A stretch of 63,982 nucleotides of DNA, counting the filler, from Collodictyon triciliatum (taxonomy: Eukaryota): the NCBI GenBank assembly GCA_043381765.1. It is 5 parts of 5 records of this genome, joined end to end, with 100 filler letters (N's around TTAATTAATTAA, not from the genome) between each part and the next. Parts side by side here need not be neighbours in the genome. Positions count along the whole stretch, not along the records: positions 1 to 13,425 come from JBHJMP010001988.1; 4 more parts are not named here. One strand, written 5' to 3'. Made by a program: the position numbers and the translations under genes. The notes beneath the pieces are model-generated. The model was given only the letters and a program-made list of their open reading frames with translations, was not told where the DNA came from and did not search any database. This document shows positions 5,880-21,604 of the stretch, piece by piece. Position 1 is the first letter of the stretch, and the number at the start of each line of letters is the position of its first letter.

Positions 5880-7818
5880 TCTAAAGGAAAAAGTAAAACA
5901 AAGACTTTCAGACGAAGAAAAGAAAACGTCTTGAGTCTGAGAATATAAATTCTGTAGAACCACATTATCGAAACATGAAAAACATCTCAAAGTTGATTGT
6001 AAAGAATGCGGATGACTATGACAAAACCAACGATACGGTTTTACTGTGTCATAATTTGGTTACCGACACTTATCTGTTTGCAAGATGTTACATATTGAAA
6101 TCACAACAACTCCCAACAATCGATGAAATGTTTTTTTCGTACGCTTTAAAGACAGTTGGAATAGATCCACAAGATAGACACGCAAGATTAAAAAAAAACT
6201 ACCAGATATAAGTAAAGACATGATGACTTTTTATCTCTATGATTTCCGATTCCTTTTGTCCCGAGAAGAACGCTTTCCGTTGGTTTGACGGTCTCATGTA
6301 TTACCGTACTTGGAGATGCAAATGTTAACAGCTTATCATAATAACACTAAGGAGCATTTTGTAAAGAGGTTACTGCGCTTTATAAACCGAACAGTGACTA
6401 AATATGAGAATGTTACGGAAGCTATTCAAAAGGCAAAGTTACGAAAGTTAAAAAAGCCATCTTCAAGAATATCGAAATATCGGAACAATATAAAGAATGG
6501 GCTAGAATCGCATTTGCATCGTATCATTCCCAGCGATGTTGTAAAAGGTATCGAATATGACGTCAAAGTTAATCCAAGTAAGTACATTCCATGTCTGATT
6601 TACATGAATCGCATTTTTGAGGACATTGGAACCAAACTGTATCAACCAATCTCTATAAGAAATAACAATATACCGCGTCATGTTACTCAAGATACTGCAT
6701 GTTTGATATATCTATTAGTATTAACTGGAAAACATTATTACTGAAGAATATATCAGGATGCAAAGATACCCTATGGGATAACTTCTTTGAAATGAAGAAG
6801 ATGGTCTTTCGTCAAAGAGACTACAATTTTAAATACACGATACAAACAGACGGCTTGGCGGTGTCATTATTGTTTGAAAAGAAAGGTATTTCAAATTCAA
6901 AATTCAAAATTCAAAATTCAAAATTCAAAATTCAAAATACCAATATTATCAAAAAAAAACCTAGAAAATGTTTATATAGATGAGCTTTCTGAAGAGCAGT
7001 TATATTTATTAGCGACAAAAAAATTAGTTTGGGTGGACGCAGGTAAGCCTAATTTGGTTTACATGGTGGACGAGACAGGTAAGAAATTACGTTGCACAGC
7101 GCACCAAAGAAAACATGATAGCGAATCTCTTTAAAGTCACAAAATACTTTTGCGCGAGAAAGAAAGAAAAGTACAATGCTTTCAGGGATATATATGGCAA
7201 CAGATTTACAAAGTGCTATTTCTTTTGGTCACATGACTTTTGAAGAGAATCAGCAGTTTGAGGCATCAAGAGTATCTTCAATCGATTTAGAGATAGAACT
7301 GAGTAAATATAATTCACGCACAGTCGATTATGAAAAAAATTCGAGAATATGTATCTATGAAATCAAGATATCAGATAGAACTTTCCAGATTTTATAAACA
7401 AGTAACTTTTCGAAAGAATGGGATGGAGACAGTAAGTTCATACAAAAAGAAGTGAACAGTTGTTTATGGGCCGAATCGAAAAGACATTTGGCAAGGATGT
7501 TGTACTGACGTGTGGAGACTGGAGTAGAAAATTTCCGATGAAACATTCTAAGCCAACCATCGGAAGAGGGTTACGAAGAATACTATCCAAATGCTTTGAA
7601 ACAGTTAGTGTAGATGAATTTAGAACCTCCACGGTGTATTGTAACTGCGAAAAAGAAACTGGGATATATGAGACTGAAAGGAAACTCAAAAAAAAGTGTA
7701 TAGATGCCTCGTATTTAAAAAATGCAATCGCTTAGAAGGCAAACAAAGTGTATTCTTGGCAAGGGACAATAACAGCGCTTATAATATACTCAACAAAGTT
7801 CCTTTAATCCTTCAATAA
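5880..7818 (+). pseudogene. Fanzor (TnpB-derived RNA-guided endonuclease, Fanzor1-like), frameshifted
   Basis: Consecutive + strand fragments give an N-terminal ...TDTYLFARCYIL...LPTIDEMF, then TAYHNNTKEHFVKRLLRFIN, TIQTDGLAVSLLF, RuvC-I WVDAG (D at 7036), GDWS...PTIGRGLRRILSK, RuvC-II VDEFRTS (E at 7616), a CNC...KKC zinc-finger region, and RuvC-III LARDNNSAYNIL (D at 7765). Confidence 0.88.
6890..6937 (+). repeat. (TTCAAAA)n heptamer expansion inside the Fanzor ORF
   Basis: Direct reading, about 6-7 units. Confidence 0.9.
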
Positions 7819-11655: not shown

Positions 11656-12687
11656 CGCGCCGAATCCACTCGGGGCTATTTTCCTTTGATTCATTTCATA
11701 TTCCTTTTTGTTGTACCTATCTGAATAGTATATTCTGCATTGATAATGAGCCTATCCACCAGCAGCTAAGTAATAAGCATTTATCACATCCATACTCAAA
11801 GCATATTCTCCAAACTATATTTTCTATTGATAATTACCTGGTAGCGCAATAAATAAAAAAAAACCTTGTAATGGCGTCATCCTTCACAAGTTAAGCATGT
11901 TACATGGGATTAGACTAAAGGAAGTGATACAATAATACATAAGTCTTGTCAATTGAATTATTGAATAGCATATTCATTCATTCTTCTATTTATTCACACA
12001 CACACAATGACAGTGAAGTGTTTTATTACTAAAGGGAAAATATATGTGTTCTGATGCAAAATTAACGAAGGTGTGATAACAATGTTCTTACATCTTTGAG
12101 ACTAGAACGAACTCATATAGAATGCATAATCTTTCCCTTCGAGATATAAGTATATTCTTGGGGCTTGTATCGCGCTCAATTTTAGTTCACAAGGAACGAT
12201 GAGCCCAATCTACGATTTACCCAGCGAGCAGCTGCAATGACATAGTCAAATGAGAGCCAAGAAACATCCCTGCAGCAGCCCTTTCCTTTTCTTCTTTTTT
12301 TATATGAGGCACAAGTCCGGCGAAGGTTCAATCATTAGGCAACCTTGATGACAACCCCTAAGCACTGTGAAGGACGAGCGAACCGAAACTCGAGACAAAA
12401 AGGGCGAAAAAGAAAAAAAAGAGGAAAAAGAGAAGAAAAATAGGACAAAAATGCCTGCACCAAAAGGAATCACATGTGCAGATAATTGCCGCTTGTTCTC
12501 GAGTCTATTTATATTCTTTTCTATTTTCTCTTCAGCAACACTTATACTTCAACCCCGTCCAATCTTCTGCACAAACCTTTCCAAGCATAACAAATCCACA
12601 CGAAACATCCGCCGCACCAAGAAACAACTCCGAGCCGATCGCAAGAAACATCAGAGTCTTAGAGCCAAAGAAACCCCGCTTTGTCCT

Positions 12688-13197
12688 ATGCTGCGCTCAC
12701 TTTTTCCAGGATCCTTTTCTCTCCCATGTCAAAGTCTTGCCAGAAACACCATGCTTATGCGGTGCGGCAGTAGCAGCAAAACAAGCAAAGCAAACGCTTC
12801 TCAACAGAGTCCAAAACGTGAGGCAACGCCTTTGACACCAGCAGATATTGCACAGCTCAAAGGCGAAGTACAAGCAAAGGCTGCCGAACTCAGCATCCCG
12901 TGTTTGGGATTTACAACCGGTGCAGCAGTGGATGCAGATACTTTGGCCCACTTTCGAGAATGGCTAAGCAAAGGGTATCATGGAAATATGCGCTTTCTTG
13001 AGAGACCCGACCGGCTCGCTCGTCGTGAAAACCCAGACCTGATTCTGCCCAACGTGCGCTCGGCAATCCTTTTTCTTCTACCGTACTTGCCCGGCCGCAA
13101 ACACTTCCCAGACGCTCAAAATGATGCACGAAATGGTGCGGTATCATCCTATGCTTGGGGCCGCGACTATCACGACATTCTCGGGGATAAACTCCAG
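12688..13197 (+). CDS. queG: Epoxyqueuosine reductase QueG-like protein, first exon, with putative mitochondrial targeting peptide (truncated by contig end)
   Basis: FREWLSKGYHGNMRFLER...RENPDLILPNVRSAI...GAVSSYAWGRDYHDILGDKL matches the QueG N-terminal motifs (WLxxGYHGxMxY/F; SxYAxGRDYH). N-terminus MLRSLFPGSFSLPCQSLARNTMLMR is Arg/Ser-rich with no acidic residues. GT donor at 13198. Confidence 0.85.
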
Positions 13198-13425
13198 GTA
13201 AATCACATGGCCTATTTCGTGCTATGAAATAGTAAACATTGATTGTTGGAACATGCGCGTGGCTAATGTTAGATTATATTATGTTAAGTTAGGTTTTTAT
13301 AATATTTTATAACACGATTTGATTTGATTTGATATGATTTGATTTGATTTGATTTGATTTGATTTGATTTGATTTGATTTGATTTGATTTGATTTGATTT
13401 GATTTGATTTGATTTGAATTGATTT

Positions 13426-13525
13426 NNNNNNNNNNNNNNNNNNNNNNNNNNNNNNNNNNNNNNNNNNNNTTAATTAATTAANNNNNNNNNNNNNNNNNNN
13501 NNNNNNNNNNNNNNNNNNNNNNNNN
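13426..13525. other. Artificial contig spacer
   Basis: N44-TTAATTAATTAA-N44 (stops in all six frames). Confidence 0.98.
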
Positions 13526-13775: not shown

Positions 13776-16552
13776 CGAACAGCAGTCTCAGAACCGTGTT
13801 CCTTGAAGTCTACAAACTTCATGACTTCGGCGCAAATGAAGCTTAAGTAAATCCACCACAACGTAAGGAATGGATCGAGTGATATATTGAGGAACAAAAA
13901 GGTAAATTTAAAACAGTAATTAGATGTCATAGTAACCCAAACGAAGCAAATATATCCTTTCATGATAATGATTGATACAAATGATAACTTCAATTTGAGT
14001 TTCATCCTGAAATGTTAGTCTGTGTACTTACCCCTTTTCAAAGTCAGAGTGAATGGTACCGGCAGCCTGAGGAGCTTTGGTGCCACCCTGACCAAATTTA
14101 ACCATTCATTACAATGGATTCTCAATATGTATCATACGTATTAGAACTCAAGTTCGTACACAGATGGAGATGAAGATTTAAATATGTATGTTGTGGTAGA
14201 CGCATAATGACAATAAAATATGGTTATCTTATCCATAATAGGTTTACAGAAAAATAAAGAAAATAATATTGATTTATGGTATGTGCCCAAGATACAAATG
14301 ACAGCATAAATGCAACTTCTTACAGAGATTGTCCAGCACTTGACTTCGTCTTCTCCAGCAGTGAAGAAGTGAATCTAACAAAGATTCCATATTAGTAGTG
14401 CGTTGAGACTATGGCCAAATACAAACAATATGGTGTATTGTCATGGATATGTGATATTTACAAGTCGGAGCGAGTGGTAACCAGTCGTGATGATTTTGGA
14501 GAGGGCGCTGTTCACAGACTTAGTTTCGCAGTAGGCTTTACGGGCGGCATCGTCAGGGAGAGACATGAGCTTTAGGTCATTATTAATATTAACAAAACGG
14601 TGACAAATATTCAATCGATGCCAGCAAATTTGCTGAGAATGTTTATATTGTGTTTGTTTTGTTTCTTTTAAAAAAAAAATAGTAACGTAATATGGTCATT
14701 GGGTAAGCTATTACATGGGATTCAAGTGCACCGCTGAAAGGAATCAGGATTTCGCCTCCAGACTTCTCATCGATCCACGCCTTAATCTTTGGCAACCTTG
14801 AATGTGCACGGATGCGAATCAACCATATGAACAAATGCACATAAAGGTTTCTGCCGTGCAGAAAAACTGGGAATACTGTGATAAGAGTGTATATATAGAG
14901 AGAGAGTGCAAATTTGATCGCACGCGAAGAATGATACCATTTATTCTTCTTTCGGGCATAGTCTTCCTCAGAGAGATTAACCAGGAAAATCACTGGCTTT
15001 GCTGTAAGCAACTGGTGCGGGTTGATGAACTCAGCCTGGAGCAATCATTTATTGTTTGTGTGAATAGTAGTCATCTGAAAAAATATTAAATATTAAAAAT
15101 TGGAATGGTGATATTGAATTCAATAAAGGAAAATTTTTTGGAAAAGAAACAGAAATAGAAATAGGGGTTTTGGATAAGTATTTTATGGCTTTATTAAAGC
15201 GTAAGCCAAACAATTTAACATATAATGATGTGTCAGTCCCATACCTCGGCAGCCTTCCAGTCACCAAAGCGGACCTGCTTGCCTTCTTTGACCCACTCGT
15301 ATACTCTCTTTAGTGCTTCCTAATTAAAAAAAAAAGTGGGCGAATACTTTAAGAAATACATAAGGCTGGGATTATTGTGGTAAATAGTCCTTATAATATG
15401 TGCAATTCTTGAGAATCTTGCATAATGCTTATCATAAACTCACATATTCTGCCTTCTTGGATTTATCAACTCTTTGCACGTGTTTTTCAAGAGTATCGAC
15501 CAGCTAATAAATAAATGGATCAGCTCGCCTTCAAGCAACTATACTTAAATATAGGGACAAAGTATTCCATAATAGGAAAAGGATTGTAACTATTTTAAAC
15601 AGACTTTTTGAAGCAACTCGAGGTCCTTCAACCGCAACTCCTCACAAATGATTTCCAAGTCGCGGATTCTATGTGTATTAAAAAAATTACATAATAGTTG
15701 ACAGTTTTCTTCGGCATAAAGTGATATGTAGTTTCGTGTTATAAATATGGGGAAATCTCACGGATTGACATCTCCTTCCACATGAACAACATCCTCGTGA
15801 TCGAAGGCGCCTGTAAGAGTTAATGCCCACGGTTAGATCAAGGAGTTGAGGAGTAAAAGAAGGTATCCCAATATTCAGGACCATTTTTTCCCTTTATTCG
15901 ATTCAAAACATTATTCAGAACAATGAAATATTCAGAACATCAATAGGCTCAATTTGGCCCGTGATGTAGTACATGTATCTTGGCCGATTAATGAGAGAAA
16001 ACTCACGAACGACATGGAAAATGGCATCCACGGCGCGGATGTGAGACAAGAATGCATTGCCTAAGCCTTGGCCTTCTGAGGCTCCTCGTACAAGACCAGC
16101 AATGTCAGTCACCTATTGTTGTTAAACGAGAGTTGAAGCCAAGAGGGCAATAAGGTTTTACACAAAATATCGAAAGGAAGACTTGCTTAATAAATGAATT
16201 GAGTACGAGTTGGATGCGTGTATGTGTATTCGTTCTTTCTTTATGTTCTGGTACGTGTGCAAAGAAAGTATTGAAAAGTCGAGGATATGGTGCTTTTTTG
16301 TCATACGTGCAAAAACCCAGGCACTTGACTTCCTGGCTTGTGGAAGGTGCAAAGCCAGTCGAAGCGCTCATCAGGCACAGGAATGCGACGTGGATATTGG
16401 CAATAAGAAAAAATTAAAAATGTTTCTCGTAACTCTGTCTATATGATAAAGTGAAAAGTAACAGGCTTTAGGACACAGTCTGACAAACGCATAAGACACA
16501 AACGAAAGTGCCTCTGGATCAATCCGCTCCAAGAAAAAAAATATATTTACAC

Positions 16553-16629
<77 letters not shown>

Positions 16630-16831
16630 AAGGATGAGTATTAAAACACTTATTGATGTTTGGGTCGATCGTGCAGAAAGGATAGTTTTCCGCAGGGACA
16701 TCAAGCTTAGAAAGCGTGTTGAAGAAGGTACTTTTCCCGACATTTGGCAATCCGACGATGCCTATCTTGAGCTGTCCACTCACACGGCCCAGCATAATTC
16801 GCTCTTCTTTTTTCTCAGCTTTGGGAGGCAT
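13776..16831 (-). CDS. OLA1: Obg-like ATPase OLA1/YchF, at least 13 exons, 3' truncated
   Basis: Motifs [102 protein letters not shown], reconstructed by manual splicing. Confidence 0.96.
16390..16653 (-). other. AT-AC intron with U2-like donor in OLA1
   Basis: Donor ATAAGTGT, acceptor ATATCCAC. Splicing restores [14 protein letters not shown]. No in-frame GT-AG solution was found nearby. Confidence 0.8.
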
Positions 16832-17029
16832 TTGTGTGTTCTTTGGGACTGATCAACGAGTTGTTGCACAAAGAACAAGAAAAAGAACAAGAAAAAGAAC
16901 AAGAGAACATAAGGTCAGAATGTATGACTGAACGAAAAAAATAAAGGTAAAAAATAATGAGTTTGTACAGAAACTTAGACTGCTTCAACTATTATGATAT
17001 TGAGTACGAGTTTAAGTGGGTTGTCAAAG

Positions 17030-17222: not shown

Positions 17223-17929
17223 TGGAAAGTAGGAAATTCTTGTGCGCCTTTCATGACAGAGAGGGAAGGGAGGATAGGAGCAGAAGGAAATCTATGAAAG
17301 TGCGGGGGGCGCAGCCAACCTGAAGTTGTAAGGCTCGATTGTTGTCTCCGGTCGTAAGTTGCAGGATGTGTGATTCCGGAGCAGAGGGCGCCGAAGACTT
17401 GAACGGATCAAGAGCTTCCGATCCTGTGTGGTCAACTTTCATCCAAATTCGGATATTATAATATAATAGTATTATATCTCTCATTATATTGATAATGAAT
17501 CATATAAGAGTAGAAAATTAATATGTATCAATATATATATTATATAATATTAAGAATAATGTTTACGAGTTAAATTTAAGATTTTGAATATTTGAATTTT
17601 ACTGAAGGTATATTAAGTGCAAACACATATACCGTCTCGTTTTACCAGAAAAGTTGGTATTAATTTCATTCGATGAGCACTGCTATCGATACCAGCACGA
17701 GAACCCTGAGCAGCCATAACCTCCGGCCCAAAACTGCTTCGAGAGATCGAAACCAGAAATCCACCTACCCCCATTGGGACAGCAACGAGACAACACCCAC
17801 CCACCGTTTTTCCCAGCTCTGAGTCTACCCACAGAAAACCAGCATCCAATCTCGCCCCGCCTAAACTAACTCTTGCCACGTACCCTTAGGCTCCCTTCTG
17901 CACTAGACCCACCAAAGCCCGATCACCCT

Positions 17930-18822
17930 ATGGTACGAGTCTATTCATCCCAGATCTCATCCCGCAGCTAGCTACGCCTCTGTCGGCCTTCATTACCCTA
18001 CTTCTCTTCAACTCATCACGTAACCCACAGGCTGCCCAGGAACCAGAGTTCAAGCTTGTCCTTGTCGGCGACGGAGGCGTCGGAAAGACCACTTTCGTCA
18101 CCCGCCACATCACTGGAGAGTTCGAGAAGAAATACGAAGGTTGTGAATAGAGCCACTTGCCAAGCTTCCCCATCGGGACCCCTGTTCCTTTCTCGCTAGC
18201 CCTGCCACTTTTTCAGACTCCTTTTTCGTCTCTGGGCATCCTTTCATTTTCGACACCGCTTTACTAAATGTGATTCGCCCATTTGTCTTCAGCCACTGTC
18301 GGTGTGGAGGTCCGCAAGCTGCGCTTCTTCACAAACCGCGGAGCGCTCGCCTTCAACGTGTGGGACACAGCCGGACAGGAGAAGTTTGGCGGGCTGCGTG
18401 ACGGCTACTACATCGGCGGCCAGGCAGGCATTATCATGTTCGACGTGACCAGCCGCACCACCTACAAGAACGTCCCCAACTGGCACCGTGACCTTACGCG
18501 TGTCTGTGAGAATATCCCCATCGCGCTGGTGGGCAACAAGGTGGACGTCAAGGACCGCAAGGTCAAGGCCGGCCAGATTGTCTTCCACCGCAAGAAGAAT
18601 CTGCTCTACTTTGAAGTCTCGGCCAAGAGCAACTACCAATACGAGAAGCCGTTCCTCGGCCTCGCCCGCAAGCTGGTCGGAGACCCGGCCCTGACGCTCA
18701 CGGCCCAGCCCAGCACACTGCCCCCAGAGGTGGCCATCGACCCCGCCTACATCGCCCAGCAAGAGCAGGAGCTGCACGCCGCCGAGTCCGCCCCCCTGCC
18801 TGAAGGAGACGAGGAGTTCTAA
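17930..18822 (+). CDS. RAN: GTP-binding nuclear protein Ran (exons 17930-17932, 18031-18139, 18293-18822)
   Basis: [60 protein letters not shown] and an acidic tail PLPEGDEEF. The first coding exon is the ATG alone. Confidence 0.98.

Positions 18823-19468: not shown

Positions 19469-21604
<2,136 letters not shown>

Follow-up and report, generated by a model that had tools for sequence, protein, structure and literature searches.

A candidate nuclear-encoded, mitochondria-targeted queuosine pathway starting from GTP and ending in a cobalamin-dependent QueG in Collodictyon triciliatum

Eukaryotes have been described as lacking the enzymes of de novo queuosine synthesis (PMC9561289; PMC13326639 of 2026; PMC12301720; statements on these and on PMC5175355, PMC11570991, and PMC4779616 refer to the available parts of their texts). 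The closest described system is that of Turmel et al. (2025), who predicted a mitochondrial bacterial-like TGT (BL-TGT), QueA, QueG, and YhhQ in Chloropicon, where preQ1 is salvaged; the first three were likewise predicted in red algae such as Galdieria (PMC12301720). Here, we analyzed a stretch of 63,982 nucleotides (the window) from the freshwater protist C. triciliatum (GenBank assembly GCA_043381765.1), in which positions 12688 to 13197 had been predicted to begin a bacterial-type QueG, the last enzyme of queuosine synthesis, with a mitochondrial-like presequence. The region is the first exon of a nuclear queG gene, and we consider it probable, at roughly 0.7, that the genome encodes a complete bacterial-type queuosine pathway whose enzymes would be imported into mitochondria, with QueG acting last.

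The protist and the Chloropicon and red algal salvage pathway share nuclear QueG, QueA, and BL-TGT with mitochondrial-type N termini beside a cytosolic eukaryotic TGT, as well as the same Leu/Gly pocket in BL-TGT (PMC12301720). Unlike the protist pathway, the algal one begins at imported preQ1, with no FolE, QueD, QueE, QueC, or QueF listed in the available text, and a word search of the supplement text of that article, tree figures not included, gave 0 matches for QueC and QueF. Mitochondrial QueG, QueA, and BL-TGT are thus already known, and the new part is the whole route from GTP in a eukaryote. The original prediction had proposed a little-described organellar last step: the organellar part is supported by QueA, TGT, and QueG, but such a step has been published for both Chloropicon and red algae (PMC12301720), and its scope was understated, since the genome also holds FolE, QueD, QueE, QueC, and QueF. 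The literature searched, which lacks most subscription papers, yielded no account of a de novo queuosine route in a eukaryote, and queuosine terms had 0 matches in the main texts of the Anaeramoeba (PMC11550330) and Andalucia (PMC7050145) papers. With the bacterial de novo pathway of Escherichia coli and Bacillus subtilis, the protist shares all eight enzyme families and the catalytic and Fe-S residues of QueG. Unlike in bacteria, its genes are nuclear, spliced, and scattered, encode N-terminal extensions, and have apparently mixed donors; its QueD carries a sterile alpha motif domain, and a chlamydial-type TGT pocket replaces Cys158/Val233. If true, a complete and spliced gene set with an apparently mitochondrial destination would clearly break with the view that eukaryotes only scavenge queuine, and would extend B12-dependent and radical S-adenosylmethionine (radical-SAM) tRNA chemistry to mitochondria in a second and distant lineage. 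Whether animals, fungi, and plants came to depend on queuine through a loss is a further question on which it would bear.

The window consists of five unrelated contigs of a fragmented assembly (14576 contigs), placed end to end with four N44-TTAATTAATTAA-N44 spacers at 13426, 26933, 40436, and 53939. Exon 1 of queG (12688 to 13197, plus strand) is a stop-free run of 170 codons, or 170 of the 429 aa of the protein. Its predicted QueG identity was borne out by matches with PF08331 (QueG_DUF1730, residues 113 to 170, E 2.5e-14, 53.4 bits against a cut-off of 25.1) and with positions 2 to 107 of TIGR00276 (residues 62 to 170, E 7.7e-19), and the only two PDB sequences matched, 5d08 and 5d6s, are both QueG structures. 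The QueG N-terminal and DUF1730 region (12871 to 13197, plus strand) includes a GxDYH motif with the His106 equivalent. As also predicted, a spliceosomal donor and a microsatellite follow: the 5' part of intron 1 (13198 to 13425, plus strand) opens with a phase-0 GT donor at 13198, and a (TGATT)n pentanucleotide repeat runs from about 13317 to the end of the contig (C1988) at 13425. The artificial spacer at 13426 to 13525 (no strand) ends the locus in the window, and the sequence to its right is no part of queG. Read on its minus strand, another contig, C10186, opens with a repeat of that same family, followed by a phase-0 AG acceptor. The contig break falls inside the microsatellite of intron 1, and the remaining exons 2 to 6 lie outside the window on the minus strand of C10186, at 1646-1321, 1247-1175, 908-760, 643-535, and 340-218, separated by introns of 73, 266, 116, and 194 nt.

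The resulting six-exon model encodes 429 aa with no internal stop and GT-AG intron ends, and a TIGR00276 profile search of the genome gave five matches, namely, the window exon and four pieces of C10186 (profile positions 105 to 315). Scored per exon, these reach 68+112+42+28+25 bits, where the whole-protein cut-off is 200 and the Logan protein P0001, the closest full QueG relative seen (60% over the aligned part of exon 1), scores 340. P0001 aligns collinearly across both contigs over 358 of 383 residues, and the best 25 of 51 QueGs from plasmid records are 39 to 43% identical to it. The CxxCxxCxxxCP motif expected in the missing exons was found at aa 254, and the second cluster motif, CDxCxxxCP, at about aa 307. 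Equivalents of the catalytic His106 and Asp134 and of Arg141 at the cobalamin face (PMC5175355) are kept, as read from 5d08 alignments at an offset of 28 and partly via P0001; B. subtilis Gln220 is not conserved, with Ile/Glu in P0001 and the protist QueG. The protein thus has the DUF1730, DYH, Asp134, Arg141, and two cluster motifs of known QueGs (TIGR00276, PF08331; 5d08, 5d6s), and unlike them it has an N-terminal extension of about 45 to 60 aa and a gene with five introns. It is a putative cobalamin-dependent epoxyqueuosine-tRNA reductase.

The presence of queA and a bacterial-type tgt, which the original prediction had made a test, was confirmed, both with presequence-like starts, and queC, queD, queE, and queF are all present as spliced genes, with QueE visible no further than residue 153 of 275. 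QueA (contig C909, 7 introns) is identical to a bacterial QueA at 166/332 positions over residues 4 to 340 of 341. QueF (C4685, 2 GT-AG introns) matches the EukProt protein P0002 at 136/153 positions, and QueC (C2820, 6 GT-AG introns) matches EukProt P0148 at 201/253; P0002 and P0148 are complete open reading frames in the transcriptome of a relative, 79 to 89% identical. AlphaFold, run on the single sequence of P0148, gave no usable model (predicted local distance difference test score, 31.8). QueE (C650) is identical to P0244 at 81/135 positions across 4 introns, with a score of 390 versus 43 for the reversed query; the spliced alignments of QueF, QueC, and QueE together score 390 to 990, and the reversed queries 43 to 65. 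QueD, which matches TIGR03367, has its gene divided between C5266 and C5683, and a separate gene on C4032 encodes a eukaryote-type PTPS; the halves of QueD are 33/67 and 31/58 identical to Neochlamydia QueD. Its sterile alpha motif domain (locus L025, C5266 620-898, minus strand; PF07647, E 3.5e-12) sits between the presequence and the enzyme part and might serve as a pathway scaffold. There are two FolE genes (C118 and C7233), two PTPS-family genes, and three TGT-family genes, as which we read the 12 profile matches on 5 contigs: BL-TGT (C4297 and C1519, Leu/Gly pocket), QTRT1 (C10655 and C3562, Val/Gly pocket), and a gene on C4646 that is, on our own reading, QTRT2-like. Locus L049 (C13527) nearly duplicates the 3' portion of the cytosolic-type FolE gene on C7233 and is probably an allele that was assembled separately. 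FolE, QueD (across two contigs), QueC, QueF, and QueA were judged intact, and the spliced alignments of the pathway genes needed neither stop nor frameshift; a full-length model was built for QueG alone, and the others were judged from exon alignments.

Since FolE, QueD, QueE, QueC, and QueF are present as spliced genes, the route looks de novo and extends beyond the last step. The chemistry and order of the steps are established (PMC9561289, PMC5175355). In the proposed route, the presequence-bearing one of the two FolEs would convert GTP to dihydroneopterin triphosphate, QueD, the radical-SAM enzyme QueE, and QueC would make preQ0 from it, and QueF would reduce preQ0 to preQ1. The bacterial-like TGT would exchange preQ1 into G34 of mitochondrial GUN tRNAs, QueA would add the epoxycyclopentane from S-adenosylmethionine, and QueG would reduce the epoxide by cob(I)alamin fed from two [4Fe-4S] clusters. 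A cytosolic set apart (FolE, PTPS, QTRT1, and the QTRT2-like protein) would serve pterin synthesis and ordinary queuine salvage. The route presupposes active enzymes, a supply of B12, and an intact 3' half of queE. The original prediction had argued against bacterial contamination from the splice donor and the repeat, and introns throughout the pathway genes bear this out. Contamination or chimeric contigs would fit the fragmentation of the assembly and the mostly prokaryotic best database relatives; however, all eight genes have GT-AG introns, several have host-type microsatellites, they lie on separate contigs with no operon order, and EukProt holds spliced orthologues. Contamination is very unlikely, and the introns largely refute it.

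The QueG extension (12688 to 12819, plus strand; aa 1 to 44, no Asp/Glu) is a predicted mitochondrial presequence-like segment. It had been called Arg/Ser rich and acid free; it is Ser rich and acid free, with 10 Ser, 3 Arg, 2 Lys, and 0 Asp/Glu in its first 42 residues, but the Arg enrichment is modest. All eight pathway proteins start with Met-Leu, and in all eight the first-exon residues (30 aa; QueC 24, QueE 9) contain at least two Arg and at most one Asp/Glu. The same composition occurs in 0/4 host controls (the other FolE, PTPS, QTRT1, and OLA1), in 3/119 prokaryotic QueF matches, and in 2/119 other QueC matches. Each duplicated family has the extension on one paralogue only, the bacterial-type one that the pathway needs. 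The extensions of P0002 and P0148 resemble those of the protist in character and differ from them in sequence, identity to the relative being high in the enzyme cores and diverged in the extensions. These N termini suggest that all eight enzymes may be imported into mitochondria. The mitochondrial DNA of Diphylleia rotans encodes 27 tRNAs that cover all amino acids (PMC4779616), so mitochondrial tRNA substrates should exist if the placement of the lineage near Diphylleia holds.

Several observations on targeting, gene joins, expression, QueE, and the TGT pocket weigh against a mitochondrial route from GTP. The composition rule was chosen post hoc, with the sequences already seen, and the hydrophobic moment of QueG (0.45) is the lowest of the eight pathway starts, with two controls at 0.45 and 0.53. 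In addition, an in-frame ATG at 12451 to 12453 (plus strand), to which the frame upstream of 12688 is open, offers an alternative QueG start that would add 79 aa, including a hydrophobic stretch. Contigs from RNA libraries cover only 12618 to 13198 and none covers 12475 to 12604, which favors the start at 12688 over that at 12451 without proving it. Together with a targeting prediction drawn from composition and a weak amphipathic signal, the longer form would suit a real pathway that acts partly or wholly outside mitochondria, by cytosolic or dual targeting, on cytosolic tRNA. We regard this as distinctly improbable because the extension sits on precisely the bacterial-type paralogue of each duplicated family, the Chloropicon orthologues are predicted to be mitochondrial (PMC12301720), and the D. 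rotans mitochondrial DNA encodes its own tRNAs (PMC4779616), if the lineage placement holds.

On gene structure and expression, the models of queG, QueD, and both TGTs each rest on two contigs whose join is inferred. Of the four runs that supplied the RNA contigs, three are freshwater metatranscriptomes and the fourth is presumed to be RNA; contigs spanning exon 1 were found in 4/4 runs and none spans the intron, and the depth over exon 1 is low (2 to 4), from contigs that may include DNA. One of them agrees with 13111 to 13198 over 88 of its 152 letters, beyond which it departs from the genome at the donor, as would be expected of a spliced transcript; no joint was listed. QueE was located via a weak TIGR04349 match (E 0.67) and aligned over residues 18 to 153 of 275 before C650 ends, leaving its 3' half off the contig. 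The genome profile search gave no QueE match with TIGR03365, and the sole match with TIGR04508 (E 0.72) was rejected as a chance Cys-rich stretch beside an actin gene. None of 8 translated loci from a DNA pattern for the Cys motif was QueE either, the real CxxxCxxC motif having escaped that pattern because it is interrupted by an intron. A decaying relic, in which the genes are recognizable and the pathway no longer runs, would agree with the low RNA depth and the half-seen gene; it is highly improbable given spliced alignments free of stops and frameshifts and enzyme cores highly identical to those of the relative beside diverged extensions.

The weak link is the TGT pocket. In the TGT with the presequence, Leu and Gly occupy the positions of Zymomonas Cys158 and Val233, so that this enzyme does not have the preQ1-type pocket; from the Leu158/Gly233 pocket and the N-terminal extension, we assign it as a putative chlamydial-type BL-TGT. 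The Chlamydia trachomatis TGT, which has the same pocket type, uses queuine as its sole substrate (PMC11570991). The pocket, the unseen 3' half of QueE, the published precedent of salvage, and the unusual sterile alpha motif domain on QueD all speak for a salvage module as in Chloropicon, supplied with imported preQ1 or inserting queuine, with the early genes incomplete or yielding preQ0/preQ1 for some other purpose. We nevertheless hold this unlikely, as the five early enzymes are all present and spliced, with open aligned parts and the same type of extension, and as the QueC and QueF reading frames of the relative are complete. Furthermore, QueA acts on preQ1-tRNA, which requires insertion of preQ1 by some TGT; without preQ1-tRNA, neither QueA nor QueG would have a substrate, which argues against the objection of a queuine-only pocket. 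Human TGT, which has Gly at this site, accepts preQ1 analogues (PMC9561289), and a Gly233 pocket is thus not exclusive of preQ1. Under the de novo mitochondrial route, the protist BL-TGT would use preQ1, making it a natural test case of whether chlamydial-type TGTs insert preQ1.

The donors look mixed across the pathway, and the following are leads only. Among the best 120 of 4881 matches to the QueF exon, P0002 ranks first (97% over the exon), the others being 74 to 83% identical; most are unnamed, and those named below phylum belong to genera that we take to be Alphaproteobacteria in every case. QueF looks alphaproteobacterial by its matches. P0148 (QueC) shares 54 to 60% identity with its top-scoring relatives, compared with at most 44% for the plasmid QueCs listed. 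A tree built by a quick method from 82 rows (74 of 120 matches to an archaeal query and 8 others, a biased sample) placed it in a 50-row clade (Shimodaira-Hasegawa-like approximate likelihood ratio test, 98) with 5/6 Heimdallarchaeia-named sequences. The named members of this clade are Heimdallarchaeia, and it also holds an archaeal-clade-type QueC (locus L060, 2461-3240) on a GC-rich metagenome contig with bacterial-looking neighbors, indicating that this QueC type moves between domains. QueD has Neochlamydia as the best of 16 plasmid matches (51%), and the TGT pocket is chlamydial in type. QueE is presumably of cyanobacterial type, although three different phyla are named in the Atlas clusters for P0244. 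The plasmid search with the QueE exon returned nothing, and those with QueA, TGT, and QueG gave no origin placement. A more far-reaching view, which is possible but doubtful, is that this eukaryote makes queuosine from GTP in its mitochondria, supplies its cytosol via tRNA turnover, and needs no bacterial queuine, the pathway being an old mosaic. Just as tentatively, the Asgard-related host would have contributed QueC to this mosaic and the alphaproteobacterial endosymbiont QueF, and the pathway would have been retained in this organism and reduced to salvage in other eukaryotes.

Ten of the 17 Cys-pattern matches (L030, L035, L036, L038, L040-L042, and L044) are near-copies sharing one 29-base word on different contigs, which suggests a dispersed repeat family. 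Elsewhere in the window, 5897 to 7735 (plus strand) holds several short, broken frames with no convincing Pfam match in the 4 pieces scanned, which we take to resemble a TnpB/Fanzor-type transposon protein from RuvC-like and Cys motifs. On the next contig, the exons at 19900 to 21335 (plus strand) presumably resemble gamma-glutamyl hydrolase, two pieces having been scanned without Pfam support. That contig also carries two ordinary host genes, a multi-exon OLA1/YchF-like GTPase (14643 to 16852, minus strand; MMR_HSR1 match) and a Ran gene (17890 to 18822, plus strand).
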